The notes beneath the pieces are model-generated. The model did not search any database, was not told the DNA's origin, and worked only from the letters and a program-made list of their open reading frames with translations. A stretch of 64,000 bases of DNA. Source: Nemertoderma westbladi (Eukaryota > Animalia > Xenacoelomorpha). How positions within the stretch are numbered: the first letter of the stretch is position 1; each line of letters begins with the position of its first letter. The stretch spans positions 124,001 to 188,000 of the forward strand of contig JAUCBJ010009163.1 of assembly GCA_032718475.1 (NCBI GenBank), in the 5' to 3' direction. Shown here piece after piece: positions 3,789-38,123 of this stretch. Made by a program: the position numbers and the translations under genes.

Positions 3789-3796
3789 CCGCTCCC
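3789..3796 (-). other. Short polypurine-tract-like site of element A
   Basis: Minus-strand GGGAGCGG immediately precedes TGTAAAAG at the start of the 3' LTR. Confidence 0.6.
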
Positions 3797-3866
3797 AGAA
3801 AATGGGATTTTCAGTCTATAAAATATAAAAATCACAGTTTCTAAAACCTAAAGATACTCTAAACAG

Positions 3867-5987: not shown

Positions 5988-6022
5988 ACATCTCGATAAC
6001 GTTAAGAGTCTCGTTCCATTCT

Positions 6023-11209: not shown

Positions 11210-11215
11210 TGCTGC
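10930..11215 (-). repeat. Coding tandem repeat (AAEAERK/AAEAKA)n in the Gag N-terminal extension
   Basis: Repeated GCCGCT and CTTTCTTTCAGC units translate to an Ala/Glu/Lys/Arg helical repeat. Confidence 0.9.
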
Positions 11216-11268
11216 TTTCTTTCTGTCTTCTATACGTTTTCTCTTTACTTGTTCTTCTTGGACTCGTG

Positions 11269-14634: not shown

Positions 14635-14646
14635 TATATCCGTTAT
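14635..14646 (-). other. Non-tRNA primer-binding site of element A, complementary to its own LTR
   Basis: Minus-strand ATAACGGATATA abuts the 5' LTR with no TGG; it is the exact complement of minus-strand TATATCCGTTAT at 15391-15380. Confidence 0.75.
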
Positions 14647-15854
14647 TGTTCGCGCTTTCAGACCTTTGGCAGTTTAACCCGCCAAATTAGGATGTCTTTT
14701 AGATAATAAATCACTTTTAGCCTCTGACAAGTATTTGATTCACTACACTAGTCGAAACCAATCTGTGCGCGATCATTCACCCGCTGGATATACCCGGGAG
14801 ATTGGGTTCGACGGCTTAATCTTATTGCTATGTAAGCCTAATGTATTATTCGACTGACAGTATTATATAATCTCTGACAATATTATTCACCTTCGGGGAA
14901 TATTAACAGTTCCTTTAGGACGTGGCGCTCTATCTATATAAACAGAGTTATGACTTAAACTACTCACAACGATATGGCTTAGTTATAATTCACATATATG
15001 GCGCATTCTTTAGGAAATGCTTCGTTATCAGTCTCACTCATACGCAATGCTGCACAATACTGCACACTAATCTGCCGATCTTCACTGATTTTAGTCACAT
15101 ATAAAAAGAACACAGGCCGACTCATGTAGGGTCTATCAAATAACATTAGATTCACTTCAAACCACTTTAACATAAGTCACAATCGTTATATGTAACCTTT
15201 CTCTCTTACCTTCGGTATATCAAGAATATTGGGTTTCGGGGTTATTTCTCGTTATTCCAAATATAATAATTCATCAACCATATTATGAAGGACCGACAGT
15301 AAATAGCAGTATAACAATATAAAGTATGCACAGTGTTACACAGTATGCAGTGTCAGTAAGATATTAAGGTTTGTGTGTGATAACGGATATATGTCCTTAT
15401 AATTAAGCCTACTAGTGTTAGGCTAAAACAGAAAAGCACAAAATATTCCCAAGCCGCTCTCTCCTGGCTCAGGACAGAATGTAAACACTGCCCATAACGC
15501 ATTGCGTGATTTCTAGGAAATTTCTGTACAAGAGCCATAAAAATGCTCTGATTGGCTGACTGAACTGAGAGATGCCGTAGAACAAAGAAAATCGACACGT
15601 ATGAATATCAGCTGTTAACCGTCGTCATAGTAACTACTGTTCAAGAGTAGCTATCACCTTTTGCGTCACGGAATTGCCATAGAATCATCAACTATGCCTT
15701 TCACAGTACACATACGGAGGAAATAGCTCTTAGATCCTCTAAAAAACACCGATACAGCAATAATACGGTCTCTTACACCTTTTAAATCAACTACAGAGTA
15801 TTTTAATGTAAAAGATAATAAAAATAACGGGGCAATTCAGCAAAGGCTTTTACA
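14647..15854 (-). repeat. 5' LTR of element A (1208 bp)
   Basis: Minus strand reads TGTAAAAG...GCGAACA; CCAAT motif near 15551-15555. Confidence 0.95.
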
Positions 15855-17970
15855 CCACGAGATAGAGAATCTTAAATGAAAGTCAAAAGAACAGGTAACA
15901 CTTACATTTATAGAAGTAATCAGCTGTTATTTGCTACGTCTTTCCGCTGAAAATGAATGAATTATTTCATATTTATAACTTCTATCCCACTCCACGAGAT
16001 AGAGAATCTTAAATGAACGTCAAAAGAACAGGTAACACTTACATTTATAGCAGTAAACAGCTGTTATTTGCTACGTCTTTCCGCTGGAGATGGATGAATT
16101 TTGATTGCATTGGAACACCCCCTATCTGTGGCTGTATGAGTGGAGAGATAAGTAGCCTATCTCCCTGTTAATATAATATCTAGAATATTTATTATAGTTT
16201 CATCCTATTGCTAAAGTGACTAGAGCTGAAGTTAACTCATAATACAATAATTCACCTCAAATATCTCAGCTATTTCATGAACATAATGAAGTATTAAAGC
16301 CATGTCAAAATCCTTGGTGTTTTTCTGCAATAATTTATCAAAATATCCTCTGTTTTTTTACAAAAAGCATATCGATTTTCATATTTATAACTTCTAACCC
16401 ACTCCAAGAGATAGAGAATCTTAAATGAAAGTCACAAGAACAGGTAACACTTACATTTATAGCAGTAATAAGCTGTTATATGCTACGTCTTTCCGCTGGA
16501 GTTGGATGAATTTTGATTGTGTCAGAACACCGCCTTATCTGTGGCTGTCTAAGTGGAGAGATAAGTATCCTATTTCCGTGTTAATATTGTTGTGTTCTAG
16601 AATATTTATTATAGTTTCATCGTATTGCTAAAGTGGCTGGAGCTAAAGTTATTATGTAATGCAATAATTCACCTCAAATATCACAGCTATTTCATGAACA
16701 TAATGAAGTATTAAAGCCATGTCAAAATACTTGGTGTTTTTCTGTAATAATTTATCAAAATATCCTCATTTTTTTTTTAAAAACCATTTCGATTTTCTTA
16801 TTTATATCTTCTAACCCACTCCACGAGATAGAGAATCTTAAATGAAAGTCAAAAGAACAGGTAACACTTACATTTATAGAAGTAATCAGCTGTTATTTGC
16901 TACGTCTTTCCGCTGAAGATGAATGAATTTTGATTGTGTCAGAACACCCCCTATCTGCGTCTTTCAGAGTGGAGAGATAAGTATCCTATCTCCCTATTAA
17001 TATTGTTGTGTTCTAGAAAATTTTTTATAGTTTCATCGTATTGCCAAAGTTACTAGAGCTGAAGTTAACTCATAATACAATAATTCACCTCAAATATCTC
17101 AGCTATTTCATGAACATAATGAAGTATTAAAGCCATGTCAAAATACTTGGTATTTTTCTGCAATAATTTATCAAAATATCCTCTGATTCTTTACTATAAC
17201 CATATCGATTTTCATATTTATAACTTCTAACCCACTCCACGAGATAGCGAATCTTAAATGAAAGTCAAAAGAACAGGTAACACTTACATTAATAGAAGTA
17301 ATCAGCTGTTATTTGCTACATCTTTCTGCCAGAGATGGATGAATTTTGATTGTGTCAGAACACCCTCTATCTGTGGTTGTAGGAGTGGAGAGATAAGTAG
17401 CCTATCTCGCTATTAATATTGTTGTATTCTATAATATTTATTATAGTTTCATCGTATTGCTAAAGTGGCTGGAGCTAAAGTTATTATGTAATGCAATAAT
17501 TCACCTCAAATATCTCAGCTATTTCATGAACATAATGAAGTATTAAAGCCATGTCAAAATCCTTCGTGTTTTTCTGCAATAATTGATCAAAATATCCTGT
17601 AATTTTTTACAAAAACCATATCGATTTTCATATTTATAACTTCTATCCCACTCCACGAGATAGAGAATCTTAAATGAACGTCAAAAGAACAGGTAACACT
17701 TACATTTATAGAAGTAATCAGCTGTTATTTGCTACGTCTTTCCGCTGGAGATGGATGAATTTTGATTGTGTCAGAACACCCCCTATCTGTGGCTTTCTGA
17801 GTGGAGAGATAAGTAGCCTATCTCCCTATTAATATTGTTGTGTTCTAGAATATTTTTTATTGTTTCATCGTATTGCCAAAGTGACTGGAGCTGAAGTTAA
17901 CTTATAATACTATAATTCACCTCAAATATCTCAGCTATTTCATGAACATAATGAAGTATTAAAGCCATGT
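15855..17970. repeat. 416-bp satellite (block 2), including one 137-bp truncated monomer
   Basis: The satellite resumes in register after the TSD; deletion junction at ~15960. Confidence 0.96.
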
Positions 17971-18519
17971 TGTGACGGGATCTACGGATCCCGGTTTATC
18001 CGTTGGGTTTTCTATCTACGCGTCCCCGCCGTGTGTGAAAGGTAAAAGAGTTCTGATGTTCGGTAATATGTATAAAGGTATAATAGTCTGATATAGCACA
18101 GTATAGTATGACACGGTTACCGGTAGATAAGTATGATGGCGGTAGCGGACGGTGACAGAAGTCCCCATTCCACCCTACTGATCTGACTGAGTAAACTAAA
18201 CTGAATAGGGAAGCACCAACAGGTAATATATGTACTGCACAGTTGGCCATATTACTGTACCTAGTCGATGCTGTCCCCCCATTGGCTAATATCCCACTTC
18301 TCGCCCTTTCACCTTCCCTGGTGTGTTTCCCGTTGCCCCTGTTGTTCTCTCTCTGTTAGGGGTTTGGCCCCTGACCCTTATTGTGTGTGTCTCCTTTGGG
18401 GCCTATTGTCCCCGTTTACTGGGCTGACACGAGGTTGATTGGTAATCAACCTCGTGCTCCCAATATTGCTCAACGGCTTACTTTGTGGGTTCATGTTAGC
18501 GGAATTGGATAAGCTAACA
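17971..18519 (-). repeat. 3' LTR of element B
   Basis: Repeat of 25002-25550 (offset 7031); TGTGAC...TAACA. Confidence 0.96.
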
Positions 18520-18557
18520 CTCCCCCCCATGCTATCTTCCCGGTGAGAAGATAGCAT
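18520..18557 (-). other. Polypurine tract of element B with adjacent 11-bp hairpin
   Basis: Minus-strand G-run plus AG abuts the LTR; ATGCTATCTTC/GAAGATAGCAT inverted repeat at 18529-18557; the same arrangement occurs in C at 27218-27255. Confidence 0.85.
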
Positions 18558-19189
18558 CCACCAAAAAGTGCGCTACAATTCCGCTGGATCCCGATCTAGT
18601 ATCGGGTGTGGGGTGGGTTATTTTCTTTCGGAGTCGGCTTTCCAGGCCGCTCCCTATGGGTATGATGTCACTACCCTCTGGCGTCTCGTGTCGGGCCGAT
18701 CATGCGCTTCTCTCACACAACTTTTGTTTCCCCAACACTTTCGCCCTGACTCTACTCTTCCTCTCCTCTCTTGCTCTAACTCTTGGACTTCCCTGTCCCT
18801 CACTCTTCCTCTCACTTCTCCCCCCCCCCCACGTTTGAATTGCGCCCACACTCTCTCCACACTATCTCCATACCACCTCTCGCTATCTCTCTTGCCCTCC
18901 CTAAGGCCCTAATCTCTAATGCTACCCTTGTGCTATCATACCATCTACCTACTGCTTACTAACTCTAACTATCTAACTCTACTAACTACTAACTCTACTC
19001 TCCGCTAACTCTCACTACTTCTGGTTCTAAATAAAGCCTCTAACTTTCTACTAACTCTAACTAGAACTACTAAGTCTAGCTAACTCCTACTAACTCTCTA
19101 CTTCTACTAACTCTACTTGACTCATCTAAGTCTACCAACTCTCTAGCCCTTTAACTAGAACTCCCTAACTCTACCCACTCTTCTAACTA

Positions 19190-20910
19190 CGTGGCGCTTG
19201 CGGTGCCCACAACCACTCTACTATCTGGCACCCTATGTGCCCTTCTACTACTCAACTACCTCTCTAGCTCTACTACCTGGCACCCTATGTGCCCTCTCTG
19301 CTCTACTCTACTACCTGGCACCCTATGTGCCCTCTCTACTACACTACTACCTCTCTAACTCTACTACCTGGCACCCTATGTGCCCTCTCTACTACTCTAC
19401 TCTATCTCTAACTCTCTAACTCTACTACCTGGCACCCTATGTGCCCTCTCTGCTCTACTCTACTACCTGGCACCCTATGTGCCCATCTCTACTACACTAC
19501 TACCTCTCTAACTCTACTACCTGGCACCCTATGTGCCCTCTCTACTGCTCTACTCTATCTCTAACTCTACTACCTGGCACCCTATGTGCCCGTCTCTACT
19601 ACTCTACTCTATCTCTAACTCTCTAACTCTACTACCTGGCACCCTATGTGCCCGTCTCTACTATTCTACTATCTGGCACCCTATGTGCCCTCTCTGCTAC
19701 CTCTAACACTCTAACTCTACTACCTGGCACCCTATGTGCCCTCTCTACTCTACTCTACTATCTGGCACCCTATGTGCCCTGTCTACCACTCTACTCTATC
19801 TCTAACTTACTTCCTTTACATCTGCTCCCTTTACGTCTACTCGCCTACACGTGACGCTCTGAATGCCGGCAGAGCGGGTACGTTAATTATGTGAACTACT
19901 ACTAACTCTTACTAACTCTCTACGTGGCGCTAACGGTGCCCACAACCACAACCGGTACTACGTACCCTCTTACTAACTCTACCTCTATCTACGTGGCGCT
20001 AACGGTGCCCACAACCACAACCGGTACTACGTACCCTCTTACTAACCTCTAACTCCCACTAACTCTAATTAACATACCCTGCTCTTACATCAAACACGTC
20101 ATCACGCCCGTGCCCCACTAAGTTCAGCGCATCCCCTACTAACTCTATCTAATGAGACTAACTACGTGGCGCTTACGGTGCCCACAACCCTCTACTGCTA
20201 CTACTTTCTATGTGGCGCTTACGGTGCCCACAACCATTCTACTACTAACTCTACTCTGCTAACTCTCTACTAACGGTACTACGTACCCTCTCACTAACTT
20301 CCTAACTCTCCTAACTACGTACCCCCTAACTCTTACTCTAACTAGCGGTACTACGTACCCTCTCACTACTCTAACTCCACTAACTAACGGTACTACGTAC
20401 CCTTTAACTCTTACTCTAACTAGCGGTACTACGTACCCTCTAACTCTAACTAACTAGCGGTACTTACGTACCCTCTAACTCTCTAACTAACTAGCGGTAC
20501 TTACGTACCCTCTAACTCTCTAACTAACTAACGGTACTTACGTACCCTCTAACTCTCTAACTAACTAGCGGTACTTACGTACCCTCTAACTCTCTAACTA
20601 ACTAGCGGTACTTACGTACCCTCTAACTCTAACTAACTAGCGGTACTTACGTACCCTCTAACTCTAACTACCTAGCGGTACTTACGTACCCTCTAACTCT
20701 CTAACTAACTAGCGGTACTTACGTACCCTCTAACTCTAACTAACTAGCGGTACTTACGTACCGTACCCTCTAACTCTCTAACTAACTAGCGGTACTTACG
20801 TACCCTCTAACTCTCTAACTAACTAGCGGTACTTACGTACCCCTTAACTCCTACTCTCTAACGGTACTGCGTACCCTCTAACTCTTACTCTCTAACGGTA
20901 CTACGTACCA
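19190..20910 (-). repeat. 3'-UTR array of short palindromic stem-loops in element B
   Basis: 12 copies of GGCACCCTATGTGCC (19227-19778), several GTGGCGCT...GTGCCCAC and about 20 GGTAC(T)TACGTACC, separated by CTA/CT-rich spacers. Confidence 0.9.
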
Positions 20911-20992
20911 CCCTTTAACTAACTAACTAACTAACTAACTCTTACTACCTAACTTCTACCTACTCTATTATTTAATTATTTTCTTATTTTAA

Positions 20993-23900
20993 TTAAATAA
21001 TTATTTTATATTTTGTGCGTGGGAAGGGCGTCTCGCCCTCATTCCCACCCCCCTCAGTCCAAAACTTTGGACGACTAAAAACTTTCTGGTGCCCCTTCTT
21101 CCAGTAGGCACTCTCCCGCTGCCCTCCTATACGCCCTCTAACTCTTCGCCACACTCTCTTCGGTACTACCTCTGCTGGCCTCCCCCTCCGTATGTGCGCT
21201 GGCATTAAAGGCCTCGACGACCCCCGCTTGTCCCTCGGTATACACGGCGTCTGCCCATGTAATGCCCCCTCGCACTGTGTCAATCCTGCGCGTGTATGCA
21301 ACACGCCTCCTTCTACTTTCCCGACTCCTTTATGTTTGCTCATGGGCTTCTCTGCCCCTGGTTTAGTCCTTTCACATCCTCTCCCTTTCCAATACTCTCC
21401 GGATCTGTGTCCTTTTACCACACATCGATGACATAGTCCGTTTGCGTCTGTGTAGGCTACACGATCTCTTTTGGGCAACGCTTGCCAGTACTTACAACTC
21501 CTGGTCTTATGGGTTCCATTCCGATGTAATTGACATTGGAATCCTGGATTATAGCGTTTCCTGTATAGTCCTTCACGTATCGCGCTTAGGTTTATATGTA
21601 TCGATTTAATGTTTCGATTGTCTAGACTCCGCCTACTGGGTATATTGGGATTGTGTTTATTTTTGGTGTTATTTTCTTCCTGTCCCCGCCACGGTCTGGC
21701 CCTGCTACCAGCTAACTGTGGACTAGCAGTCCCCTGTACGGCCGCGTGTGGTAGTGACTGTCCGCACGACCTGTTCTCGTCCAGGGAGTTCGATATTCTT
21801 GCTCCTATCGGGGTATATTGTCGATATTGTGATGGGGGAATGTCACCCTGTCCCCCCCCCGGCCGGTATGTTTGGTACTGGGGTTGATGTTAATACATTG
21901 GGGCCCATACGTCTATCTCCAATAACTCCCCCCTCCCCTGGATATATGTTATGTCCCTGTGTATTATAGTCATGCTGCTGTACCGATATAGGCCTACCTA
22001 CCTCTCGCCTACCTACCGGTATGTACTCCGCGACTTCCGGGTTTAATCCCGTCGTTCGCGCTACCCCATCGCCTACTCTATCTCTCCCAGCATGGCCTAT
22101 AATAGTATGTGCAGTAAGGCCTACAGTATGTCCTGCAGTCTGCATGTGCCCTTCCGAACCGAAGTTTATTCTTCGCGAATCTCGAATCTCCCCGCGACTA
22201 CCGTACTCTCGATCGGCAGCTATATCACGTCGGGAAGTTTCCCTTCGATCCCCTATCCTGTTCTCGTCTTCGTATTTGTACGTCCTGTACCCCTCTCTTG
22301 GCGTGCGGTGCGTTTCTCCGGGGCGACGGCAATCTCCCGAAGTTCGACCCCACTGACTCCCTAACTCCATCTCTACTATCGACGGTCCGCTATCCGTCCT
22401 CGCACTCCTATCGTTCGTGGCGACACCTTTTCTACTATCTCCTCTTCTTCTCTTTTCAGTGCAGTATTCCGGCTCATGAGATCTCTCGTCGACCTCCCGG
22501 TTAAACTCCACTGTTCTTCTTCTCTCTTCTGATCGGGCTCGACGCTTCGTCTGCCCTCTCGCGACGTCAACCTGCCTCTCTCTGCTCGATCGCACGCCGC
22601 TGGGGGTACTCGCAACCCCCCCATTACTCTCCGTCGCCGGGTGTTGCGGTTTACCTGATTCGGCCCGCGCATTATCCGCTGACGGCTGTGGGACACTCTC
22701 TGCCCCCCCTCTCTCTCTACTAACTTCTCGCGGTGGGGTGCCCGTAGCCCCCCCCCCCCCACCCGCCACTTCTAACTCCACTATCTCTTACTACACTTCT
22801 GCGTCCCTCTTGTCGGACATTCTCTACCCCCCTTCTCTCGCCACTAATCTTTCGTGGTGGGGCTCCTGTAGCCCCCCCCCCCCACCCGCTACTTCTAACT
22901 TCACTACCTCCTACTACACCTCTACACCCCTCTTGTGGGGCATTCTCTGCCCCCCCTCTCTCGCCACTAGTCTTACGTGGTGGGGCGCCGGTAGCCCCCC
23001 CCCCCCCCACTCGCCACATCTAACTTCACTATCTCTTACTTCGTCTCTACACCCCTCTCTAGTCGACACGCTGTCTCTACTACGGCTGGGTCTATTCACC
23101 CCCGCCTCTCTCTCTACTACTGCGTGGCCCATCAGGCCCACCTCGGGTTGGCTCAACCCCGCTACCTCCTGCCTACCAACTACGTGGCCTACCAGGCCGC
23201 CGTCGGGTTGGCTCAGCCCCGCCACCTCCTGCCTACTAACTGCGTGGCCTACCAGGCCGCCGCCTGCCGGGCTATACACGTCTGACACGCTCATATTAAT
23301 AGCACCATTCCCAATATTATTTGTTAAATCAATTAAATTATTAGAATTTGAAACGGGACTGTTATTTAAATTATTTAAATTAGGATTATTATTATTTTCA
23401 AAATTTAAATTATTGTTCGAATTATTTGAATTATTCTGAATATTTGAATTAACGTTATTATTTGAGTTTAAACTTAAATTACTACTACCGGGTAAGATAT
23501 TACCTGTAATAAAGGGATTAGGGTTATTTACTACGGTACTATTAATACCAATATTTCCTAACGCACTACTACTACCCCCCCCCCCCCGCCCGTACGGCTA
23601 CACCAGTTCTGGTTTTCTCGCTCGGTGTCTGTAAGTGGGGTCTCACTCTGTGATAGTTCCAACCGCACCAGTTCTAGTCGGCGCTGGTTTAGTTTGGCTT
23701 GATATTGTGTAAGCCTCTCTAGCTGGGCACGCAAATCATCCCGCACGCGCTTATCCTCTATTTCTCTCTCTCGTGTACTCTGCTCGGCCAACTCTACCCT
23801 TCTCGCAACCATCTCAAACCGCCTCGCCGGCTCGCTCATCTCCCGCTCTCTACACTCCTTGGCTCTCTTTCTACACTCCTCGGCGCTCTCTCTATACTCC

Positions 23901-24832
23901 CTCGCCAACTCTCCTGACCTCTCTGAAAATGTGGTTTCCTCTCTCAATTGTCTCTCTAACTCATTCTGCTCATTCGCCACCATCGATAATTCATACGTCA
24001 GATTTATTTTCAGCACCCTTCTTTCTTTCGCGGAGGATGTAGCAGACTTATCGGTTGCGACGGACTCCCGCCGCCCCTCCGTCCTATCAACTTTCCCCCG
24101 CCTCTCGGAACTTCCTCCAACCGACGAGACCGAATCCTCGGAGTTAACCTCGGATTCGCCCTCCTCAGGTCTCTTCCAACCCACTAATTTTACTCCCCGG
24201 GCATCGACTAAGTATGGCCCTATGTACACTACACTAGGCTGCATACCCCTACACTCCCATAGTTCAATCAGTTCGTTGATAACTCCCCTCGCCCTCTCCT
24301 CGGCTAGTTCTCCCTGCCCAGAACGCACTAGGTAATAAAAGTATCTGTTCGACTCACCTAGTCGTCTCCTCAGTCTCACCTCATCTATCTTCGCCCCTCC
24401 TTTGGCTTCCTTCAGTTGCTCCCGGGTCGCGGCGTAGGCCCGTCGAAGTCGATCAGAAACCCCGACGTCCTCGTCGCCGACCTCTCCTCCATCTCTCCGG
24501 GTCCGACGTCGTACCGGCGGCCCCACCGTCGCCGTTCCGGTGGACCGTTTGTCGTCCTCGGCCTGTGGCTGGCCGGTGACATCGGTACGTCGACCCTCGC
24601 TCCGCGTCGACTCGTCTTCCTCTTCTCCTCCCGACTCGATTTCTCTTTGTATACGACCCCCCACATCTTGGTTCGCCGGGTCGCTCGTTATCGACGTGGC
24701 GTCAACGTGCGTCGACGTGGTCGGCGTAGCATCGACCGGCGTCGTGGGTTCGTATCGTCTCGCCGTGGCCTCGCGGATCATTAGATCGTCGTCCGGGGTC
24801 CGCGGCGGTGTCATTCCTTTCTCTCGACTCAT
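20993..24832 (-). pseudogene. Fragmented gag of element B (N-terminal extension plus zinc-knuckle region; capsid-like core deleted)
   Basis: ORFs 23558-24832, 22914-23294, 22720-23019, 21843-22781 and 20993-21478 are colinear with C gag; breaks fall at G-runs; ~0.8-kb deletion at ~21762. Confidence 0.82.
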
Positions 24833-24862
24833 CTTCGTCTTTGGTGGCTGACCGCCAGAGTC

Positions 24863-25001
24863 TGTCAGGCCAGTTGGTTGGATCTAGCTCTGTCACTGTC
24901 AGACTGTTAGGGCAGCTGCTAGGATTCTATCACTGTCAGGGCAGCTGGGCGGATCTGATTCTGTCACTGTCAGGGCAGCTGGGCGGATCTGATTCTGTCA
25001 C
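24863..25001 (-). repeat. 34-37-bp tandem repeats in the B leader, each starting with the PBS motif; 24993-25001 is the LTR-complementary PBS
   Basis: Minus-strand GTGACAGAA at 25001 and 24967, GTGATAGAA at 24933 and GTGACAGAG at 24896; complement lies in the LTR at 25183-25191. Confidence 0.85.
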
Positions 25002-25550
25002 TGTGACGGGATCTACGGATCCCGGTTTATCCGTTGGGTTTTCTATCTACGCGTCCCCGCCGTGTGTGAAAGGTAAAAGAGTTCTGATGTTCGGTAATAT
25101 GTATAAAGGTATAATAGTCTGATATAGCACAGTATAGTATGACACGGTTACCGGTAGATAAGTATGATGGCGGTAGCGGACGGTGACAGAAGTCCCCGTT
25201 CCACCCTACTGATCTGACTGAGTAAACTAAACTGAATAGGGAAGCACCAACAGGTAATATATGTACTGCACAGTTGGCCATATTACTGTACCTAGTCGAT
25301 GCTGTCCCCCCATTGGCTAATATCCCACTTCTCGCCCTTTCACCTTCCCTGGTGTGTTTCCCGTTGCCCCTGTTGTTCTCTCTCTGTTAGGGGTTTGGCC
25401 CCTGACCCTTATTGTGTGTGTCTCCTTTGGGGCCTATTGTCCCCGTTTACTGGGCTGACACGAGGTTGATTGGTAATCAACCTCGTGCTCCCAATATTGC
25501 TCAACGGCTTACTTTGTGGGTTCATGTTAGCGGAATTGGATAAGCTAACA
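25002..25550 (-). repeat. 5' LTR of element B
   Basis: Repeat of 17971-18519; CCAAT (~25312), a TA-rich box and TCAGT Inr-like motifs on the minus strand. Confidence 0.96.
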
Positions 25551-26673: not shown

Positions 26674-27217
26674 TGTGACGGGATCCACGAAGGATCCCGA
26701 TTTATCCGTTTGTCAATCTACGCGTCCCCGCCGTGTGTGAAAGGTAAAAGAGTTTGCGTTGTTCGTCGTATATAATTTCCGGGTATAATAGATAGATATA
26801 AATAGTATGTTGTAATGTAGAGACTGAATGTTGATATATGGAAGGCGGGATACGGTGATTGAAGTCCCGGTACTTCCCTAGCTAAACTAACCTAACTAAC
26901 ACCAATAACACACTGAGATAACTGAATAACTGATTGCTGGTACCTAATAATATATTGCACGGTTTGGCCTTGCTACAGTACCTAGCCGATGCTTCCCCCC
27001 CCTGATTGGCTAATATCCCTGTTGGTGCCCTTTGGAGTGTTCCCGTTCACTCCAGCTATTCTCTCTCGGTTAGGGGTTTGGCCCCTGACCCTCATTGTGC
27101 GTTTCTCCTTCCCTCTTTGTTGGGGTGACACGAGTTATTGGTTACCCAATCTCGTGGCCCCCAATATTGCTTAACGGTCAACTTTGTGGGGTGTTAGCGG
27201 AATTGAATAAGCTAACA
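26674..27217 (-). repeat. 3' LTR of element C (544 bp)
   Basis: Repeat of 37581-38123, with PPT immediately internal. Confidence 0.95.
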
Positions 27218-28149
27218 CTCCCCCCCATGCTATCTTCCCGGTGAGAAGATAGCATCCACCTAAAGTGCGCCACAATTCCGTTGGATCCCGATCTAGTATC
27301 GTGTGTGGGGTGGGCCTATTTTCTCTCGGAGCCGGCTTTCCAGGCCGCTCCCTCTGGGTATGATAATGATACCCTTTTCGCCTGGCGTCCCATGTCGGGC
27401 CGATCGTGCGCTCCTCTCACACGATTTTTGTTTCCCCAACACTTTCGCTTTGACTCTCCTCCGCTCTCACCCTAACTCTCGCATACTCTCGGACCTCCTC
27501 GTCCCTCACTCCGCCTCTTACTTCTCCCCCCCCACATTTGAATTGCGCCCACGCTCTCTCCACACTCCGCACTCCACGCTCTATTACTCATATCTCGCCC
27601 TATCTCACCCTCTCGTTTCTGACGAGCCTCACCCCCCTTTCGTGCCGTCGCACTCAAGAAGTATGATGTCGTCAGCGTCTCGTCCGTGACTTACAGTACC
27701 ATGGTCGATTAGTCCCCAGTCCCAGTAGCTAATTGGAATAGGTCGTGCTTGACCACGGTACGTACTTTATAATATACATACGTGATTTACTTATATAATT
27801 ATTATAAAGTTATTACTATCATATGTTATATTATATGCTCGTCTACATAACGCGCCTCATTCCCTCTCGGCCTTTCTCCCCTGGCGACTTCTTCCAGTCG
27901 CTTCTCCCCTAATCTATTCACTTCCAACTTCCCCCATGTGATGTCTATCCAGACCTCCGAAGGCCATCTTGAAGGCTCTTCTGTAGTTCGGAGGTGATTC
28001 TAATATCCTTAATTTTTTCTTTTTTATTTTAGATTTTGTGCTACTAACCCTACCTGCCTTTCTGGCTACTATTTCTATGATATGTTGTGCTCTCTTATCT
28101 CTTACTAAATACTATTTATACCCCCCTATCACTGATTCTTACTACTAAC

Positions 28150-28750
28150 GGTGCTCTATGCACCCTCTTACTAACTAGTTCTATAACTAACTACTACTCA
28201 TACTAGCCGGCACTACGTACCCTCTTACTAACTCCCAACTCTACTCTTACTAACCGGTACTACGTACCCTCTTACTAACTCCTCTAACTCTACTCTTACT
28301 AACCGGTACTACGTACCCTCTTACTAACTTCCAACTCTACTCCTACTAACCGGTACTACATACCCTCTTACTAACTTCTCTGACTCTCTTACTAACTCCC
28401 AACTCTACTCTTACTAACCGGTACTACGTACCCTCTTACTAACTCCTCTAACTCTACTCTTACTAACGGTACTACGTACCCTCTTACTACTTCCAACTCT
28501 CTTACTAATGGTACTACGTACCTTCTTACTACTTCTAACTCTCCTACTAACGGTACTACGTACCCTCTTACTACTTCTAACTCTCTTACTAATGGTACTA
28601 CGTACCCTCTTACTGACTTCTGACTTAACTATCTAACTAGTGGTACTACGTACCCTCTTACTACTTCTAACTCTCTTACTAATGGTACTATGTACCCTCT
28701 TACTGACTTCTGACTTAACTATCTAACTAGTGGTACTACGTACCCTCTTA
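28150..28750 (-). repeat. 3'-UTR stem-loop array of element C
   Basis: More than 10 copies of GGTACTACGTACC in CTCTTACTAAC-type spacers, plus the variant GGTGCTCTATGCACC. Confidence 0.9.
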
Positions 28751-28924
28751 CTACTAATTTCCTACTATCTAACTTCTATCTGCTTACTGCGTACCTATTA
28801 TGTACTATAATCACTTTCTCTTTATTTATTATTATTTTTTTTCTATTTTATGTGTGGCGTCTCGCCCTAAATCCCACCCCCTCAGATCAAAACTTGGACG
28901 ACTAAACTACATTCCAACTCCACC

Positions 28925-30330
28925 CTAAGGTGCCCCTTCTAATAGACAGCATTTCCCTACAGCTCTCCTGTAGGTTTTTCTGTCTTTCGCGCCTATCTTG
29001 CCACCTATCCGCACTTCTACCGATCGGACTCTTCCGTCCTCATCGGAGTAAGTGCCCAAAACTCTCGCCAACCGCCACTGGTTGTTGATGATAGTATCAT
29101 CCGTAACGATCACGAGATCTCCCACTCTTAACTCCCTATTCGTCTTCCTCCACTTGCTTCTTTTGTGAAGCGTGGGTAGGTATTCCTCAACCCACCTCCT
29201 CCAATACTCTGCGCTTATCGCTTTAGCGACTTTCCAACTCTGGCGGGAGTGTATGTCATCTGGGTCAACACCCCACATGTCGATGGTCACTGGCCTTTCC
29301 ATTAGAAAATGGCTGGGCGTCAGCACATCTAATGACTCAGGGTCATCATTCTCCGGATATAGCGGTCTGCTATTAATGATACCCTCACACTTCGCAAGTA
29401 CTGTTCTCAAGATGTCCGCCGTGACCATGTGGGTGTTCATTAATTTCGTCATGAGACGCTTCGAACTGCCCACCAGTCTCTCGACGCATCCTAGTGTATG
29501 TGGTGCATACGGCATCCTTCTCTCCCACTTTACTTGTCGTCGTCTCATGGCTGTCCTGACTTCCTCCCCTTCCAAGATGTCCAAGGCCTCTGCCATCTCG
29601 TTCTCCGCTCCCACAAAGTTGGTTCGGTGGCGGAGTATATTACTGCGATTGTCCCACCTTTGCGGTCTCTGAACCTTTCTAAAGCATTAATAAATGCTGA
29701 TGCAGTTGCATCTTGGGCGAGTTCTATCCCTACCGCCCTCGTGTTGCTACATACGAAGATGATACCGTAGCGTTTCTCCGTGTGCCGCATCACCTTGATC
29801 TTTATCGGCCCGAACATGTCCACACCGCAATGTGTAAATGGCGGATCGTGCTGTCTTACCCTACTTGATGGTAGTGGTGCCATCTCCTGTATGGCTCGCT
29901 CCTTCTTCGCTCATCGGCAGGTCTGGCACTGCCCCACTACCGCTTTTACTTTCTTCCTCAACTGCTTGACCCAAAATGTTCTCCGTATCTCCGTGAGGGT
30001 TCGGTTGGTGCCCCCGTGCAATATCGACTTGTGGGAGTCCCAGATAATCTGGTGGACTATTGGCGATCCTGTAGGGATGATGATGGGTTTCGGTGGTACG
30101 ACTATACTGTTGTTGTACCCCACCCTAGAGTTCATCACTAGAGTTCATCACTCGCTGTACCATCGAAGATGCTGTTGTTTACCGACGCGTTCCACCTCGT
30201 CGCCATAGTTCTTCCGTTGTTCATAGCGGATGACTGCTTTGGCCGCTCCTTCCAGATCTATGGTTGTCCTGATCTTCTTGCCTTTGCCAACTCTCGCGAG
30301 GAAATTCTCGAAGGCTCTCCAGTACGCCAC
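28925..30330 (-). pseudogene. Integrase of element C, frameshifted
   Basis: HKSILHGG...CQTCR zinc finger (29911-30138); CGVDMFGP (29545-29883); GCVERLVG, INSRPL, LTPSHFL, WRRWVEEYLPTL and WRLARV C-terminal motifs (28925-29614), split across frames. Confidence 0.9.
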
Positions 30331-30388
30331 TAATTTCTTGGTCTTATACCAACTAGAGCTGTAGCTGAGGAGTTTATCCGTCGGGTTA

Positions 30389-32917
30389 TCACACAGTTCT
30401 TCTGGTTGGTTGCACGTCCCTTATCTCCCTCACCATCTGGGAGTATATCTCTTCTCCCTCTGAATCTCCTTCTTCTCCCTCTGATACTGCCTCTCCTGAG
30501 CCCGGGTCCACCTTTCTCATCGGCGGCCAGGCCTCCTTGTCGCTCAGAAACTGTGGCCTGTGTTGCCACAATACCTCCTTTTTTAAGAAAGTGTGGCGTG
30601 CCACGCCCCTCGATAACAAGTCCGCTGGGTTCTCGTCCAAAGGGCAGTAGTGCCACCTTCCTAGTTCTGTCGTCGCCCTTATTTCGTCCACTCTATTTGC
30701 CTCGAATATAGGGTACCGCGTTTTCTCGTTATGTAGCCAGCCAAGCACTACCATGGAATCCGTCCAGTAGTGTGTCTCCACTATGTTGGGAATAGCCTCC
30801 ATTATGTAGGCTGTGGCCCTAACTCCTAGCCTCGCCGCTGTCAACTCTAGTTTGAGAACCGATGCCGAATCTGGTGGCGTTGACTTCGCCTTGCTGAAGC
30901 CAAGTCTGGGCTTATGAAGCCCATCTCGTTGTACTAAATAGAGCGCCGCTCCATATGCCTCTAGTGACGCATCGGAGAACATGTGCAGATCCAGGTTCGT
31001 CATGTCCCCATCCGGGAAATACACTCGTGGCATGCTGTATGTTCCCATCTTCTCCAAACCTTCTGTCCACTTACACCACTCTTTCTTGATCTCTTCTGGT
31101 ACCTCTACGTCCCACTCATCCTTCAGTTTGTATACTCTCTTGAGTATCTGTTTCCCCGTGACTAATAGTGGGGATGCTAGACCTAGGGGATCGTATATCC
31201 TTGCTATATACGACACATAGCCCCTCTTCGTGTGGATGTCTGCGCCCTCCTGGCTCAACTGATACTTCAGTTCATCTGTCTCTCTGTTCCACACGATTCC
31301 CAGTGCCTTCTGTTGAGACTCTGTCCTCTTGTTCGCCATGTCCTGCCCTTTGGCCGTTGTGGGATTATCCATGGTCGATTCTGGTCTCTTGTCCTCTATC
31401 GCCTTGATAAATTCCTCCAAACTGGATTGGAATTTGGTCAGGTTAAAGCCGGATCCTTTTAGGATGTCGCGAACCTTGCGCCCTGTGTCCAGTATCTCCT
31501 TAACCGTATTTCCAGACTCCATCCCGTCGTCTACGTAGAAGCCGCGTCGAATCATATCGACGGCCCTAGCACTGTATCTATCCTCCTTCCCTTTCACTGT
31601 ATCTCTTACTGCCATAGTCGTCGTAAATGAAGACGACTTAGCTCCCATGTTCTGTACGACCATCTTGTACGTCGGTATTATCGACGGTTCTTCGTCGCCG
31701 TCATACCATAAGAAGCGTTGACTGTCGCTATCTTCCTCCGTTACACGGACTTGGTTGGACATGCCTTCTATGTCACACGTGAAGGCGTGTTTCCCATTTC
31801 TAAATCTAAGTAGGACCTCTATCCCTGAGTTGTATATGTTCCGACCTTCTAGCAGATAGTCGTTTAAGCATTTTCCGTTGGTCATTGCCGATGCGTCAAC
31901 TACCATCCGCAGTTTACCTTTCTTTGGGTCTAAAGCCACGTGGAGTGGCAGGTAATATGTTCTGTCCATGTTTGGTTCGTCGACCGGTAACTCCACGGCC
32001 CATCCTTTCTCGACGTACTTCTTAACCGTTTTGTGGATGTACTCATTCTTCTCGGGGCTCCGTTTTAGTGTCTGCTTCTGCTTGCGGAGCCTCGTGAGTA
32101 CCATTCCTCTATTATCGGGCAGTGGTAGCTTCGGTAGCTTCCATACCATTCCTATGGTGTACCGCCCCTCATCGCATTTCATAGACTCCTCTACGCTCTG
32201 CTGAGCCTGTTTGTCTTCCACCGAGGTCCCGACCCCGGTCTCCTTTAGTCCTTCAAAATCCTGCCTCAGCAGTCTTTTAAGCTGCTCCTCTGCTCTCTCA
32301 TCACTCATTTCCTGCATAGTTCCCGCGAACATGCATCCTGATGTCTCCGACATCCTAAATGGTATCTTGCTCTTGATTGGGCCACTCAGCGTCCACCCGA
32401 ATGGTATCAGTATCGCCACCGGGTCACACTGCTTGTCTTCGCCGAAGACTGTTTGCATTCTTTCGTGGGCCGTTGGGCAGTCCATTCCTACTATGATGGA
32501 TACCTTCCTAACGTCCACCTCTGGGATTGAGAAGTCGATATCATCCAGAAATTTATATTGTTCGACCTCAATGTTGGTTGGTCGCCTGGCATTGATGTTT
32601 ATTGACTCTATCACTTGGATGGGGTCGATGCTCGCCCCATATTCGCATCCTGGTGCTATTGCTGCGATGGTGCACCGTCCGGTTCTCATCTCCAGGACCT
32701 CATCTTTGCTGGAGATGGTTGTTACTGCCATTCTACTTGGCCTCGTTCTCAATCCTATTTCTTCGGCCACACAATCTTTGACTAATGGGAAGGCAGCTCC
32801 ACTATCAACCAGCATTAGTGTTGTTACTGATCGATTGCCTTCTCCAATCACTCGCACAGGTACTACCCCAAGCAGCACCGTTCCTCTCTTTTTCACCGCT
32901 ACTGTGCTCATTGCCAT
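30389..32917 (-). CDS. Protease-RT-RNase H segment of element C pol
   Basis: LVDSGA; RMVVDAS, DIEGM, FYVDDG; YDPLG; FSDAS, LELTAA, WTDS, ENPADLLSRG. Confidence 0.93.
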   Translation of the reverse strand: MAMSTVAVKKRGTVLLGVVPVRVIGEGNRSVTTLMLVDSGAAFPLVKDCVAEEIGLRTRPSRMAVTTISSKDEVLEMRTGRCTIAAIAPGCEYGASIDPIQVIESININARRPTNIEVEQYKFLDDIDFSIPEVDVRKVSIIVGMDCPTAHERMQTVFGEDKQCDPVAILIPFGWTLSGPIKSKIPFRMSETSGCMFAGTMQEMSDERAEEQLKRLLRQDFEGLKETGVGTSVEDKQAQQSVEESMKCDEGRYTIGMVWKLPKLPLPDNRGMVLTRLRKQKQTLKRSPEKNEYIHKTVKKYVEKGWAVELPVDEPNMDRTYYLPLHVALDPKKGKLRMVVDASAMTNGKCLNDYLLEGRNIYNSGIEVLLRFRNGKHAFTCDIEGMSNQVRVTEEDSDSQRFLWYDGDEEPSIIPTYKMVVQNMGAKSSSFTTTMAVRDTVKGKEDRYSARAVDMIRRGFYVDDGMESGNTVKEILDTGRKVRDILKGSGFNLTKFQSSLEEFIKAIEDKRPESTMDNPTTAKGQDMANKRTESQQKALGIVWNRETDELKYQLSQEGADIHTKRGYVSYIARIYDPLGLASPLLVTGKQILKRVYKLKDEWDVEVPEEIKKEWCKWTEGLEKMGTYSMPRVYFPDGDMTNLDLHMFSDASLEAYGAALYLVQRDGLHKPRLGFSKAKSTPPDSASVLKLELTAARLGVRATAYIMEAIPNIVETHYWTDSMVVLGWLHNEKTRYPIFEANRVDEIRATTELGRWHYCPLDENPADLLSRGVARHTFLKKEVLWQHRPQFLSDKEAWPPMRKVDPGSGEAVSEGEEGDSEGEEIYSQMVREIRDVQPTRRTV

Positions 32918-35900
32918 CGTTTGGCCTTTACTTTGACCGAACTTAATCGGCGTCTCCTCGCATTGTCTAGCTCTATGTCCACCCGTTACACATCGCGAGC
33001 AGATCTCTTTTCTCCGTGTACTCTACCTGATCTTCCCTGGGTAGCGCTTGCCAGTAGCTACAGTTCATGGTTCGATGATGCGCATTTGTATGTAGTTAGC
33101 ATTTTCTCTTCGGGTCGTAGCCGTCCTTGTACAGTGCATCGTGTATCGCAGCCGCACCTGTACCAAAGTCCCTACTATTCTTATTGTTTGGGTTTGGCCT
33201 ACTGGGCGTACTGGGGTTATGTTTATTTGTGTTGTTATCCCTCCCCTGTCCGCTCCATGATGTGGTCTTACTCCCGGCTACCTGTGGACTCGCAGTACCC
33301 TGCGTCGCTGCGTATGGCAATGATTGCCTGAGCTTTGGTAATGCGTTTGACGTGTTGTGTTCTGGTTTCGGTCTGTTGTACTCGGTTCTTGGTCCCTTTC
33401 CCAGGCTGTCCTCACTATAGACTGGGTCGGTTATTAATTCGGCTTCGTAGTTTAAGAAGCTCGACATTTCTTCTAAACCCGGTTCCTTACCCTTCCTATC
33501 TCGAGTGGAGAAAGCGATCTTCCTCCACTTGTTGCGTAACCACATCGGTAGTGCCTGCGTTATCGTGGTGATGTTGTTGGACGCGTTGAGCTCGTATGGC
33601 GCGTCTAGCATCTTTAACACGATTAGTGCCTTCTCGACCTTGTTCGCGAATGTCTTAATGCTAACGGGATTATCCTGTAGGCCACCCGATGTTATGCCTC
33701 TCAGGGTCTGCCTGATGATCTTGGCTGGGTGCTCGTATTCCATGTCTAGTGCCCGCCATGCCGTCGTGAAGCCGCCCTCTATGCCCTGATACTGCCTCAC
33801 GATGTCGTATGCTGGGCCTCCTGTGTATACTTGCAGATACTTTAGGCACTCCGCCTGCGTCAAGTTCTTTGTTAGTATTTCGTTACTATACATGCGCCGA
33901 AACTGGAGATATTCTTCCGGCCTACTCCCATCGAATTTGAATGGTTCCACGGGTGGTAATTCGATCCTTGTTTTTAATGCATCGATCAACGTGGCCATCC
34001 CCATCGCCTGCGCTTCCAATGGATTCGATGGATGTTGTATAGTTTCTCCTGTTGGGTGTGGTCCGCCCATCCTATTTTCTGCCTTCCTCTGGCTTGGGTA
34101 TATCATTGGGGGTAGCGGCCCCCTCCATATTTCTGTGTCGCATGACCTATTTCCATCCAAGGGGTTCGTTGTTCTTGCTCCTATTGGGTTATATTGTTGA
34201 TATTGTGATGGGGGAATGTCACCCTGTCGCCCCCCCCCCCCCACCGGTATGTTTGGTACTGGGTTTGATGTTAATATATTGGGGCCCATGCATCTATCCG
34301 CAATAATTCCCCCCTCCCCTGGGTATATGTTATATCCTTTCGTGCTGTAGTCATGCTGCTGCACTGGTACCGGTATAGGCCTATTAGCTTCTGGCCTACC
34401 TGCCAGTATGTACTCCGGACTTCCGGGTTTAGTTCCATCGTCCGCGCTATCCTATCGCCTACATTATTCCTGTCAGCATGGCCTATGGTATGTGCAGTAA
34501 GGCCTACAGTATGTCCTACAGCCTGTATGTGTTGCTTTATTCTTCTCGAATAATCCTCCCCGCGGCTACCGTACTCACGATCTGTAGGTATATCCCGTCG
34601 GAAAGTTTCTCTTCGACCCTCACTACTACTCTCGTCTTCGTGCCGGTACATCGTGTACCCCTCCCTCGACGCGTAACGCGTCTCGTTAGGTCGCGTCTCT
34701 CCGGGACGAAGGCAATCTCCCGGAGTTCGACCCCACCGACTCTCCCTTTCCATCTCCACCACCGACGGCTCGCTATCCGTCCTCACTCTCCTGTCGTTCG
34801 CGGCGATACTTCTTTTGCTGTCTTCTCTTCTTCTCCTCTCAGTGCAGTATTCCCGCTCGTGAGATCTCTCGTCGACCTCCCGGTTAAACTCCACTGTTCT
34901 TCTTCCCTCTTCTGATCGGGCTCGACGCTTCGTCCGCCCTCTCGCGACGTCAACCTGCTTCTCTCTGCTCGATCGCACGCCGCTGGGGAAACTCGCAATC
35001 CCCCTATTACTCTCCGTCGCCGGGTGTTGCGGTTTACCTGATTCGGCCCGCGCATTATCCGCTGACGCCTGTGGGACACTCTCTGCCCCCCCCCCCTCTC
35101 ACCACTAACTTCTCGTTGCGGGGCTCGGCTCCTCCCCCACCCCCCCCCCCCCCACTCGCCACATATCACACAGCTATCTCTAACTTCTCTTCTACACCCC
35201 TCTCCAGTCGACACAATATTTCTACTGCGGCTGGGTTCGCTTACCCCTGCCTCTCTCTCCACTACTACTTGGCCTATCAGGCCTACTCCGGGTTGGCTCA
35301 ACCCCGCCATCCCCTGCCTACTAACTACGTGGCCTACCAGGCCGCCGTCGGCTCGACTCAGCCCCGCCACCTCCTGCCTACCAACTACGTGGCCTACCAG
35401 GCCACCGTCGGGTCAACTCAACCCCGCCACCTCCTGCCTACTAACTACGTGGCCTACCAGGCCGCCGTCTGTCGGGTCATACACGTCCGACGCGTTCGCG
35501 TTAATAGCACCTGTATTAGAAACGGAATTATTTTGTTTGTTCGAAATAGAATCATTTGGATTATTTTGCGCGACTACGCTATTTGAATTATTTTGTAAAT
35601 TCGGGCTTGGATCATTATTTAAATTATTTGAGTTATTATTATTTTCTAAATTTAAATTATTATTCGAGTTATTTTGCAGGTTTAAATTGAAATTATTATT
35701 TAGGCTATTTGTATTTAAATTCAAATTACTACTACCAGGCAAAGTATTTCCTGCAATATAAGCTTGGTTAGGATTATCCGATACGGTACCATTAATATTA
35801 ACGTCGTCTACGGTAGTATTATTATTACCCCCCCCCCCCCCCCCCCGCCCGTACGGTCACACCAGTTTCGTGTCTGTCGTGCGGTCCCTGTAAGTGGGGT

Positions 35901-37515
35901 ATTAATAAATGTATCCACGGCCCTTGGCTCCTCGAAAATATTCGAGCCGGTCCCGCTCTCAGACGCCCCTATCCGCGCCAGTTCTAGTTCGCGCGTGCGT
36001 CTAGCTTTGTACTCTATAAGCTCGCTTTGCTGTCTTTCCAACTCTTTTCGCTCACGCTCCTCTCTTGCCATTCTCTCCCGTTCCTCCCGTGCGTTTTGGT
36101 CGGCCAATTCCGCCTCTCTCTGAGCTCCCTCCCTTCGCCTCGCCTCACGCTCTCTACGCTCACTTTCCTCTCTCGCCTCACGTTCCTTGCGTTCATTTTC
36201 CTCTCTCGCCTCACGTTCCTTGCGTTCCTTTTCCTCTCTTGCCTCACGTTCCTTGCGTTCCGCCTCACGCTCTTTGCATTCACTTTTCTCTCTCGCCACA
36301 CGTTCCTTGCGTTCATTTTCTTCTCTCGCCTCACGTTCCTTGCGTTCCGCCTCACGCTCTTTGCGTTCACTTTTCTCTCTCGCCACACGCTCCTCTTGTT
36401 CCTTCCTCCCTATTTCCTCACACTCTCTAAGGCTTCTCGCGGCCCTTTCGGCCTTCTCTCTGGTTTCTCTAATCAGTACCGCTTCCCTCTCTAATTGTAT
36501 TCTCCCCTCCTCTAACCGTCTATTTAACTCTCTCTGACCTTGCTCTATCAGGTCGAGATGGTACGTGGCATTTATCTCTCTCACCCGTCTTTATTTTATG
36601 GAGGATCTAGCAGACTTATCGGTTACGACGGATTCCCTCCGCCTTCCCGACCTACTAACTCTCCCCCCCCCTCCCAGAACTTCCCCCGACCGACGAGATC
36701 GAATCCTCGGCCTCAACCTCGGATTCGCCCTCCTCAGGTCTCCTCCAACCCACAAATTTTACACCCTGGGCATCGACTAAGTATGGCCCTACGTACACTG
36801 TACTAGGTTGCATACCCCTACACCGCCATAAATCACACAGTTCCTCTGCAACCCCTCTCGCTCTCTCCTTGGCCAGTTCTCTCTGCCCGAAACGCATTAG
36901 ATAGCTAAAATGTCTATCCGACTCACCTAGTCCTGTTGTCAACTTCACCTCATCTATCTTCGCCCCCTCCTTGGCCTCCATAAGTAGCTTCCGGGTCGCG
37001 TTGTAGGCCCGTCGAAGTCGATCAGAAACCCCGACGTCCTCGTCGCCGACCTCTCCTCCATCTCTCCGGGTCCGACGTCGTACCGGCGGCCCCACCGTCG
37101 CCGTTCCGGTGGGCCGTCCGTCGCCCTCGGCCTGTGGCTGGCCGGCGACATCGGTATCGACATCTCCCTCATCTCTCCGGGTCCGGCGTTGTACCGTCGG
37201 TCCCACCGTCGCCGTTTCGGTGGGCCGTTTGTCGCCCTCGGCCTGTGGCTGGCCGGCGACATCGGCACGTCGACCCTCGTTCCGTGTCGACTCGTCTTCT
37301 TCTCCGTCCCTCTTGCCCTCTCCTTCTCCCAACTCGGCTCCCAGTTCTCTCGGCTCGATCTCTGACTCCAGACGGTCCCCTCCATCCTGATCTGCTGGAT
37401 GACCCGTTACCGATGGGTCTGGCGTCGTGGGCCTATACTGTCTGGTCGCGGCCTCGCGGATCATTAGTTCTTCGTCCGGGGCCCGCGTCGGTGTTGTCTC
37501 TCCTGACTGACTCAT
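32918..37515 (-). pseudogene. gag of element C, interrupted by frameshifts and a premature TAA
   Basis: ORFs 36655-37515, 35808-36584 (E/R/K repeat), 35413-35742 (Asn-rich), 34783-35370, 34271-34978 and 33096-34364 (FDGSRPEEYLQF Gag core); TAA at 33098-33096 falls inside the first zinc knuckle, followed by CSRCVTGGHRARQC. Confidence 0.88.
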
Positions 37516-37571
37516 ACTTTAGATTGGTGGCTGGTAGTCACTGTTTAGCTAACTAGGGGTGGCAGCTTGGT

Positions 37572-37580
37572 TTCAATCAC
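37572..37580 (-). other. Non-tRNA primer-binding site of element C, complementary to its own LTR
   Basis: Minus-strand GTGATTGAA abuts the LTR; complement TTCAATCAC at 37770-37762. Confidence 0.78.
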
Positions 37581-38123
37581 TGTGACGGGATCCACGAAGG
37601 ATCCCGATTTATCCGTTTGTCAATCTACGCGTCCCCGCCGTGTGTGAAAGGTAAAAGAGTTTGCGTTGTTCGTCGTATATAATTTCCGGGTATAATAGAT
37701 AGATATAAATAGTATGTTGTAATGTAGAGACTGAATGTTGATATATGGAAGGCGGGATACGGTGATTGAAGTCCCGGTACTTCCCTAGCTAAACTAACCT
37801 AACTAACACCAATAACACACTGAGATAACTGAATAACTGATTGCTGGTACCTAATAATATATTGCACGGTTTGGCCTTGCTACAGTACCTAGCCGATTCT
37901 TCCCCCCCTGATTGGCTAATATCCCTGTTGGCGCCCTTTGGAGTGTTCCCGTTCACTCCAGCTATTCTCTCTCTGTTAGGGGTTTGGCCCCTGACCCTCA
38001 TTGTGCCGTTTCTCCTTCCCACTTTGTTGGGGTGACACGAGTTATTGGTTACCCAATCTCGTGGCCCCCAATATTGTTTAACGGTCTACTTTATGGGTGT
38101 TAGCGGAATTGAATAAGCTAACA
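37581..38123 (-). repeat. 5' LTR of element C (543 bp)
   Basis: TG...CA ends; repeat of 26674-27217. Confidence 0.95.

Follow-up and report, generated by a model that had tools for sequence, protein, structure and literature searches.

Primer-binding sites complementary to their own long terminal repeats in three BEL/Pao retrotransposons of Nemertoderma westbladi

We analyzed a 64,000-nucleotide stretch of the Nemertoderma westbladi genome (assembly GCA_032718475.1, contig JAUCBJ010009163.1, positions 124,001 to 188,000; hereafter the window, whose numbering is used for its features), which is filled by a 416-bp satellite array broken by long terminal repeat (LTR) elements. [quoted passage not shown] The LTRs have TG...CA ends and are flanked by 5-bp target-site duplications (CGTGG at 15859-15855 and 2631-2627 for A, ACATG for B, and CACTT for C), so the LTR ends are fixed independently of the PBS pairing. 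The 1208-nt 5′ LTR of A (14647..15854) differs from its 3′ LTR (2632..3788) by 5 substitutions and one 51-nt gap, a deletion near the unique 5′ (U5) end of the 3′ LTR, in a comparison scored one base short at the unique 3′ (U3) end. The 549-nt 5′ LTR of B (25002..25550) shows 1 substitution relative to the 3′ copy (17971-18519), and the 543-nt 5′ LTR of C (37581..38123) shows 7 substitutions and 3 one-base gaps relative to the 3′ copy (26674-27217). Because the members of each LTR pair are nearly identical, we regard all three elements as recent insertions.

Pfam and tblastn searches place these elements in BEL/Pao. In A, a single minus-strand frame of 1774 aa from stop to stop (6023..11347) covers Gag, protease (PR), reverse transcriptase (RT), and ribonuclease H (RNase H), and matches PF05380 (Pao peptidase) and PF03564 (DUF1759). 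C matches both and in addition PF18701 (DUF5641); its Gag, PR-RT-RNase H, and integrase are spread over several frames, of which the PR-RT-RNase H frame (30389..33022, minus strand) has 877 aa. The domain order PR-RT-RNase H-integrase is complete in C and ends after RNase H in A. The Pol proteins are far removed from all database entries: their best matches, which are BEL/Pao polyproteins, reach about 30% identity for C and 38-44%, with one at 31%, for A; the named hits of A Pol come mostly from fish, echinoderms, and corals. The acidic, catalytic-type residues of RT and RNase H are invariant in 59 aligned proteins, A and C included. B is a non-autonomous element with Gag fragments, and was assigned to BEL/Pao because its Gag and LTR resemble those of C; the LTRs of B and C are about 71% alike, which makes the two elements homologous. 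None of the three belongs to Tf1/sushi, as the Pfam and homologue searches returned BEL/Pao only and no Ty3/gypsy chromovirus Pol.

The first-pass annotation of this DNA had reported that none of the elements carries a tRNA-type PBS beginning with TGG and that each PBS instead has a perfect complement in its own LTR, and both statements were borne out. TGG occurs neither within the 40 nt after nor in the last 10 nt of any of the three 5′ LTRs, and priming by a full-length tRNA, which requires TGG at the LTR end, was excluded for A, B, and C. For each element, the longest stretch of perfect complementarity to the post-LTR bases begins at offset 0: the 12-nt PBS of A (14635..14646) pairs with 15380..15391, the 9-nt PBS of B (24993..25001) with 25183..25191, and the 9-nt PBS of C (37572..37580) with 37762..37770, all on the minus strand. 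These LTR segments (hereafter partners) are the candidate self-primer 3′ ends; the 3′ LTR of A holds a further copy of its partner at 3325-3314. When the LTRs were dinucleotide-shuffled 5000 times, a match at least as long at offset 0 arose in 2 (A), 4 (B), and 30 (C) rounds, and when offsets 0-4 were allowed, in 7, 9, and 78 rounds. Among the first 1450 internal positions, the same match length occurs 1 (A), 6 (B), and 3 (C) times, with offset 0 itself counted. The pairing is thus real and non-random, and it ends precisely at the U5 edge, as had been described. Since this is where a primer must end, the register fits priming, and all three elements lie at 0 within the range of 0-5 nt after the LTR used as an offset criterion for self-primed elements.

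Further features of the pairing agree with the initial description. The partner lies 181 nt from the U5 end in both B and C, and the two elements differ by a double change at both pairing sides (CA/TT versus TG/AA) within conserved surroundings; by a hand estimate that takes the LTRs as about 29% diverged, the chance of two matching changes is about 0.01. Owing to their homology, B and C count as a single case, which leaves two independent cases in the window and one covariation event. In a cross test of 21 PBSs against 21 LTRs, the PBSs of A, B, and C each matched their own LTR best (12, 9, and 9 bp, versus at most 6 bp in the 20 other LTRs). The CCAAT motif noted upstream of the partners starts 164 (A), 125 (B), and 145 (C) nt ahead of them. 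The pairing of B extends to 11 bp if a one-base bulge is allowed, and its leader (24896-25001, minus strand) holds four tandem copies of the motif at the LTR-end/PBS junction, the three besides that of the PBS itself starting at 24967, 24933, and 24896; C has a single degenerate extra copy at 37541. A primer assembled by splicing was rejected for A, B, and C, in which the match is contiguous and no spliced alternative at offset 0 exceeds 6 bp. By inspection, 14 bp would result in C from looping out 37 nt of the form GT...AC (37807-37771), but this loop-out was set aside as non-canonical, very short, and without a counterpart in B.

Motif scans and folding suggest how the pairing might be embedded in the transcripts of B and C. 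Both have a TATA-like motif (at 25261 and 37861) located 28-31 nt ahead of an aligned TCAGT initiator-like motif, and the predicted promoter and 5′ extension (25192..25261 in B and 37771..37861 in C, minus strand) would place +1 at 25233 and 37830, respectively, that is, 42 nt and 60 nt upstream of the partner. In this motif-based model, the primer of B and C is likely internal rather than 5′-terminal. In B, a further helix is predicted between the 35 nt upstream of the partner and the same length of sequence downstream of the PBS (24992-24958); such flanking extensions were equaled in 3 and 13 of 1000 shuffles for B and, marginally, in 30 and 50 for C, and swapping the extensions gave weaker pairing than the cognate combinations. 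Each of the two LTRs also has a U5 segment (25041..25061 in B and 37619..37639 in C, minus strand) predicted to pair with the bases that follow the partner (25182-25169 and 37761-37751) and then, through a PBS-like decoy (25050-25041 and 37628-37619), with the partner, as well as a predicted U5-terminal hairpin (25008..25023 and 37587..37605, minus strand). The part of the U5 segment that pairs with the post-partner bases is invariant between B and C, and the decoy varies along with the partner. This competing decoy, as modeled, suggests an RNA switch.

Relatives were collected with an alignment of 27 homologues, which yielded 59 metagenome loci and 21 genome-bin loci, most of them truncated. 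An LTR pair was present in 2 of 12 extra stretches taken from two bins (contaminant contigs), and three scans of viral contigs returned no relatives. In 12 unrelated BEL/Pao families the U5 end could be set by an LTR pair (in L032, whose LTR pair has diverged, it was shifted to a shared CCACA). Two of these families (L079 and L081) have a TGG-starting, tRNA-type site, and in both the match to the own LTR is at most 4 bp. In contrast to these, six of the 12 pair over 11-12 bp with their own LTR at offset 0. The match is contiguous in one of them (L026, 11 bp), and in the other five (L002, L014, L032, L069, and L073) it appears only after the LTR sequence is joined to an upstream GT donor, that is, across a GT-AG junction. 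In seven of the 10 families without TGG, the unspliced match is 5-9 bp long and follows directly on a pyrimidine tract and AG. An earlier reading of the "cAG-TT" ahead of the relatives' partners as a transcription initiator was dropped; a splice acceptor fits better because of the pyrimidine tracts and because upstream donors lengthen the pairing. A match that exists only after splicing speaks for a pairing that works in RNA.

The spliced matches vary in their individual strength. With any donor allowed, shuffled PBS tails equaled the spliced match in 6 (L069), 29, 51, 66, 244, 311, and 377 of 500 trials; when a consensus-like donor was required, the counts were 1-26 of 500 for the five families spliced to offset 0. 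The same pattern was seen in seven additional families (L005, L011, L027, L030, L039, L040, and L076), six of them with 11-14 bp after splicing, which are not independent tests because their LTR end was chosen from the pattern itself. A scan of 41 families without assumed LTR ends found spliced matches of at least 11 bp at 8 of 1243 ACA sites versus 9 of 21,022 other sites, every third non-ACA site being sampled and the donor list having been written after the splice test; nine of the 41 families gave a hit, and among the 32 without one, many have flanks that are cut short. In the cross test, 11 of the 21 PBSs, including those of A, B, and C, were strictly best with their own LTR, whereas non-cognate matches of at least 11 bp were limited to 12 of 420 combinations, all among four families that share PBS letters; L069 was lost under the stricter acceptor filter used there. 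In phylogenetic trees, which included no named Suzu or Sinbad references and were not used to assign a clade name, the self-pairing relatives form one supported group, separate from the TGG-type and insect elements, with A and C as long branches near its base. Self-pairing in A, C, and the relatives may have a single origin.

We consider it probable, by analogy with Tf1 and from the sequence features above, that A, B, and C start reverse transcription with a segment of their own RNA. The first-pass annotation had proposed a BEL/Pao lineage independent of tRNA primers; self-priming remains the best reading, supported far more by the relatives than by the window alone, and the arrangement reaches beyond one lineage of this genome, being common in the BEL/Pao elements of other animals. 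Under the self-priming reading, transcription would begin upstream of the partner, at least in B and C, and the partner would fold onto the PBS, assisted in B and C by the flanking helices and the U5-terminal hairpin. The element's RNase H would then cut at the 3′ end of the partner, and RT would extend the cut end directly into U5, so that the resulting DNA ends at the terminal CA. Plus-strand synthesis would copy the primer back into the PBS and so transfer changes in the partner, and a PBS recopied in this way would explain why the pairs are perfect and co-vary; regeneration of the PBS from the primer follows from how LTR elements are generally reverse-transcribed. The enzymes that A and B lack would have to be supplied in trans. 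For many relatives, a primer is predicted only once an LTR intron has been removed by splicing. Speculatively, the copying of an RNA spliced in its 3′ LTR would lose the intron, and A, B, C, and L026 could be contiguous forms that arose in this way. The broader proposal stands at about even odds in our judgment: a large BEL/Pao branch of aquatic animals would have done away entirely with tRNA priming, most members splicing an LTR intron to build an 11-nt self-primer, so that host splicing licenses reverse transcription, and A, B, and C being intron-free, with an internal primer and a two-state switch between U5 decoy and PBS.

Several observations weigh against self-priming. All three copies are defective: A has no match to integrase, B has no pol, and the coding region of C is split between frames. 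Among the relatives, L074 and L090 have a spliced 11-bp match at +1 rather than 0, L059 pairs over 10 bp but from +4, and L065 lacks any perfect match; the spliced matches of L073 (377 of 500 shuffles), L074 (244), and L090 (311) are individually weak. The published threshold of at least 10 contiguous pairs (PMC6317226, excerpt) is passed by A with 12 and lies above the 9 pairs of B and C, which also fall short of the 11 seen in most relatives. Support for placing A and C inside the self-pairing clade varied between three trees, with Shimodaira-Hasegawa-like approximate likelihood-ratio (SH-aLRT) values of 93 and 45 in two and the placement open in the third. At folding equilibrium, the partner:PBS helix of B and C has a probability of only 0.01-0.13, as the U5 decoy outcompetes it, and forcing the helix costs 0.5-3.7 kcal/mol. 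The 3′-flank helix alone fails to beat shuffles (359, 134, and 548 of 1000 for B, C, and A). In A, the flanking extension as a whole is not significant (146 and 101 of 1000 shuffles), the pairing spans a 733-nt loop, and a TATA-like motif at 15401, 10 nt upstream of the partner, could set the start of transcription beyond it; the helix dominates the fold only for an RNA that starts at the partner and falls to about 0.01 with two upstream starts.

In an alternative reading, the pairing acts as an RNA switch of a structural or regulatory kind, in translation, dimerisation, or packaging, and another primer is used. In its favor, the partner of B and C has two predicted mates, of which the decoy wins in the ensemble, and the long flanking helices form with either. 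We nevertheless judge this explanation unlikely, since it does not explain why a helix should stop exactly behind the terminal CA, as it does in six of the 10 non-TGG relatives and in A, B, and C, or why it should be missing from the two TGG-type elements, and it leaves the lost tRNA site unaccounted for. The particular difficulties of A would be met if self-priming held for B, C, and the relatives while the 12-mer of A lay upstream of its transcription start and were either supplied in trans or a relic. That is a highly improbable exception in our view: no other single match is as strong as this 12-mer (2 of 5000 shuffles; 1 of 1450 internal positions), the LTRs, with their 5 substitutions and one gap, speak for recent movement, and an earlier start is allowed by initiator-like motifs about 175 nt upstream of the partner and by a strong splice-acceptor-like site 31 nt upstream (putative exon start 15422; 15395..15442, minus strand, including the TATA-like motif). 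As for chance complementarity, B and C are homologous, their 9-mers are short, the pattern was found post hoc, and a 9-bp match also arises by chance, as between B at offset 2 and a bacterial tRNA-Met. Set against the shuffles, the covariation, the cognate specificity, and the recurrence in unrelated families, it is barely credible.

A host tRNA fragment of the half-tRNA type, or another small host RNA, could also serve as primer, with the LTR match being secondary. Half-tRNA priming is known in copia lineages (PMC6317226, excerpt), and the first 7 PBS bases of B pair with the anticodon loop of tRNA-Asp(GUC), as do PBS bases 2-7 of A with that of tRNA-Asn(GUU), although both tRNAs are bacterial and not the host's. 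This pairing ends at the loop, and the changed letters of C disrupt it. The window itself contains no tRNA genes and no Rfam matches and hence no self-encoded tRNA primer. The comparison was made with 46 tRNA sequences from small, probably animal, contigs of one bin, representing 10 anticodon types, and with 28 bacterial tRNAs; both sets are incomplete and neither is from the host. In the first set the TGG-type L081 served as a positive control (17 bp to tRNA-Lys), and A, B, and C reached at most 8 bp; in the second, C paired over 10 bp with four G-U pairs and A over 7 bp with two. The search of the PBSs against tRNAs thus gave no match longer than 10 nt (four of them G-U) for the three elements, within partial, non-host anticodon coverage. 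The PBSs of the relatives are, moreover, highly varied, each following its own LTR, and we regard priming by a tRNA fragment as distinctly improbable.

The core CAACGTG is common to the tRNA-Lys(CUU) site in L081 and two of the non-TGG sites, those of L074 (1771-1782) and L065 (6170-6185), and L074 pairs over 11 nt (two G-U) with the acceptor stem of tRNA-Lys(CUU). The core is possibly a relic of an ancestor primed by tRNA-Lys, or a chance resemblance.

Self-priming is a known mechanism, here most likely at work in a family described as tRNA-primed. The virus taxonomy committee ICTV describes Belpaoviridae as having an 18-nt PBS for tRNA-Arg or tRNA-Gly and tRNA-primed replication (PMC8742986). 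The elements described here share with that family the Pao peptidase, DUF1759, DUF5641, the PR-RT-RNase H-integrase order, and LTRs, and differ in that the 18-nt tRNA-Arg/Gly site is absent from A, B, and C; we treat the ICTV site as descriptive and rest BEL/Pao membership on the proteins. Self-priming has been ascribed to Tf1, Tf2, and Tj1, to Tf1/sushi and Tcn1, and, by prediction, to the plant TAR lineage (excerpts of PMC6317226, PMC4600332, PMC5341516, PMC7175516, PMC5006619, and PMC2864245). In Tf1 the pairing covers 11 bases and RNase H cuts between bases 11 and 12 (PMC7175516, excerpt), and Tj1 of S. japonicus is self-priming as well (PMC4600332, excerpt). As far as these excerpts go, Tf1 and Tf2 of Schizosaccharomyces pombe, Tj1, Tf1/sushi, and Tcn1 resemble A, B, and C in lacking a tRNA site and in having a PBS that complements the own LTR, over about 11 nt; a U5 stem-loop lies near the PBS there and is predicted in B and C. 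The proteins, in contrast, are those of Ty3/gypsy chromoviruses there and of BEL/Pao here. The Tf1 primer consists of the RNA's first 11 bases, whereas that of B and C is predicted to be internal, with only 9 contiguous pairs, an extension that pairs imperfectly, and competition from a U5 decoy, and many BEL/Pao relatives are predicted to need splicing; the evidence here comes from sequence. Tf1 reportedly also requires a U5 inverted repeat (U5-IR).

The TAR lineage (Houba and Osr-1) of plant Ty1/copia elements, although of another superfamily and another host kingdom, is likewise a case of self-priming predicted from sequence outside Tf1/sushi (PMC6317226, excerpt) and so provides a precedent for independent origins. 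Skipper of dictyostelids has also lost its TGG primer site, but carries a polypyrimidine stretch without an LTR complement (PMC5006619, excerpt). A term search of three BEL/Pao surveys (PMC3118150, PMC554778, and PMC6238403) found no mention of a PBS or of self-priming, and the available portions of PMC3601003, PMC7472051, PMC12451622, PMC3286476, and PMC13524379 contained nothing on BEL/Pao priming. No report of self-priming or of a splice-built primer in BEL/Pao was found in the literature covered, to which subscription journals, Repbase, GyDB, and supplements did not belong. If our reading is correct, self-priming arose independently once more in these BEL/Pao elements or was retained there from an ancient state, and it would be explained why tRNA-based annotation misses the PBS in such elements. 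They would also escape the silencing that tRNA 3′ fragments direct against tRNA-type sites (PMC7472051, excerpt).

Beyond its main frame, A has a second one of 724 aa (3867..6041, minus strand) that carries CCHC-like motifs and lies at the place expected for integrase; it gave no Pfam hits, and Atlas pointed only below threshold (0.84) to a CCHC/exonuclease cluster. The leader of A is about 3.3 kb long (11348-14634, minus strand), 287 nt of it being duplicated internally, and a frame of 383 aa without a Pfam hit lies in the leader region (11269-12420). Among the relatives, L069 has a second LTR element nested in its BEL/Pao leader (3428-8147). Several bins labeled as prokaryote (L060-L079 and G001-G005) hold animal BEL/Pao elements together with tRNA arrays on small contigs, which is likely contamination with host DNA.

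The satellite array (window 1-59967) holds A, B, and C at three separate positions, all in one orientation and each with near-identical LTRs, and this arrangement possibly reflects targeting of, or accumulation in, satellite DNA. A fourth element (59968-64000, plus strand) lies on the opposite strand and is related to C, with a Gag 86% identical; it has no LTR on its 5′ side, where about 480 nt of unrelated sequence separate it from the satellite. The satellite is also interrupted at 46553-47804 by a non-coding insertion with terminal inverted repeats and internal repeats, resembling a miniature inverted-repeat transposable element (MITE).

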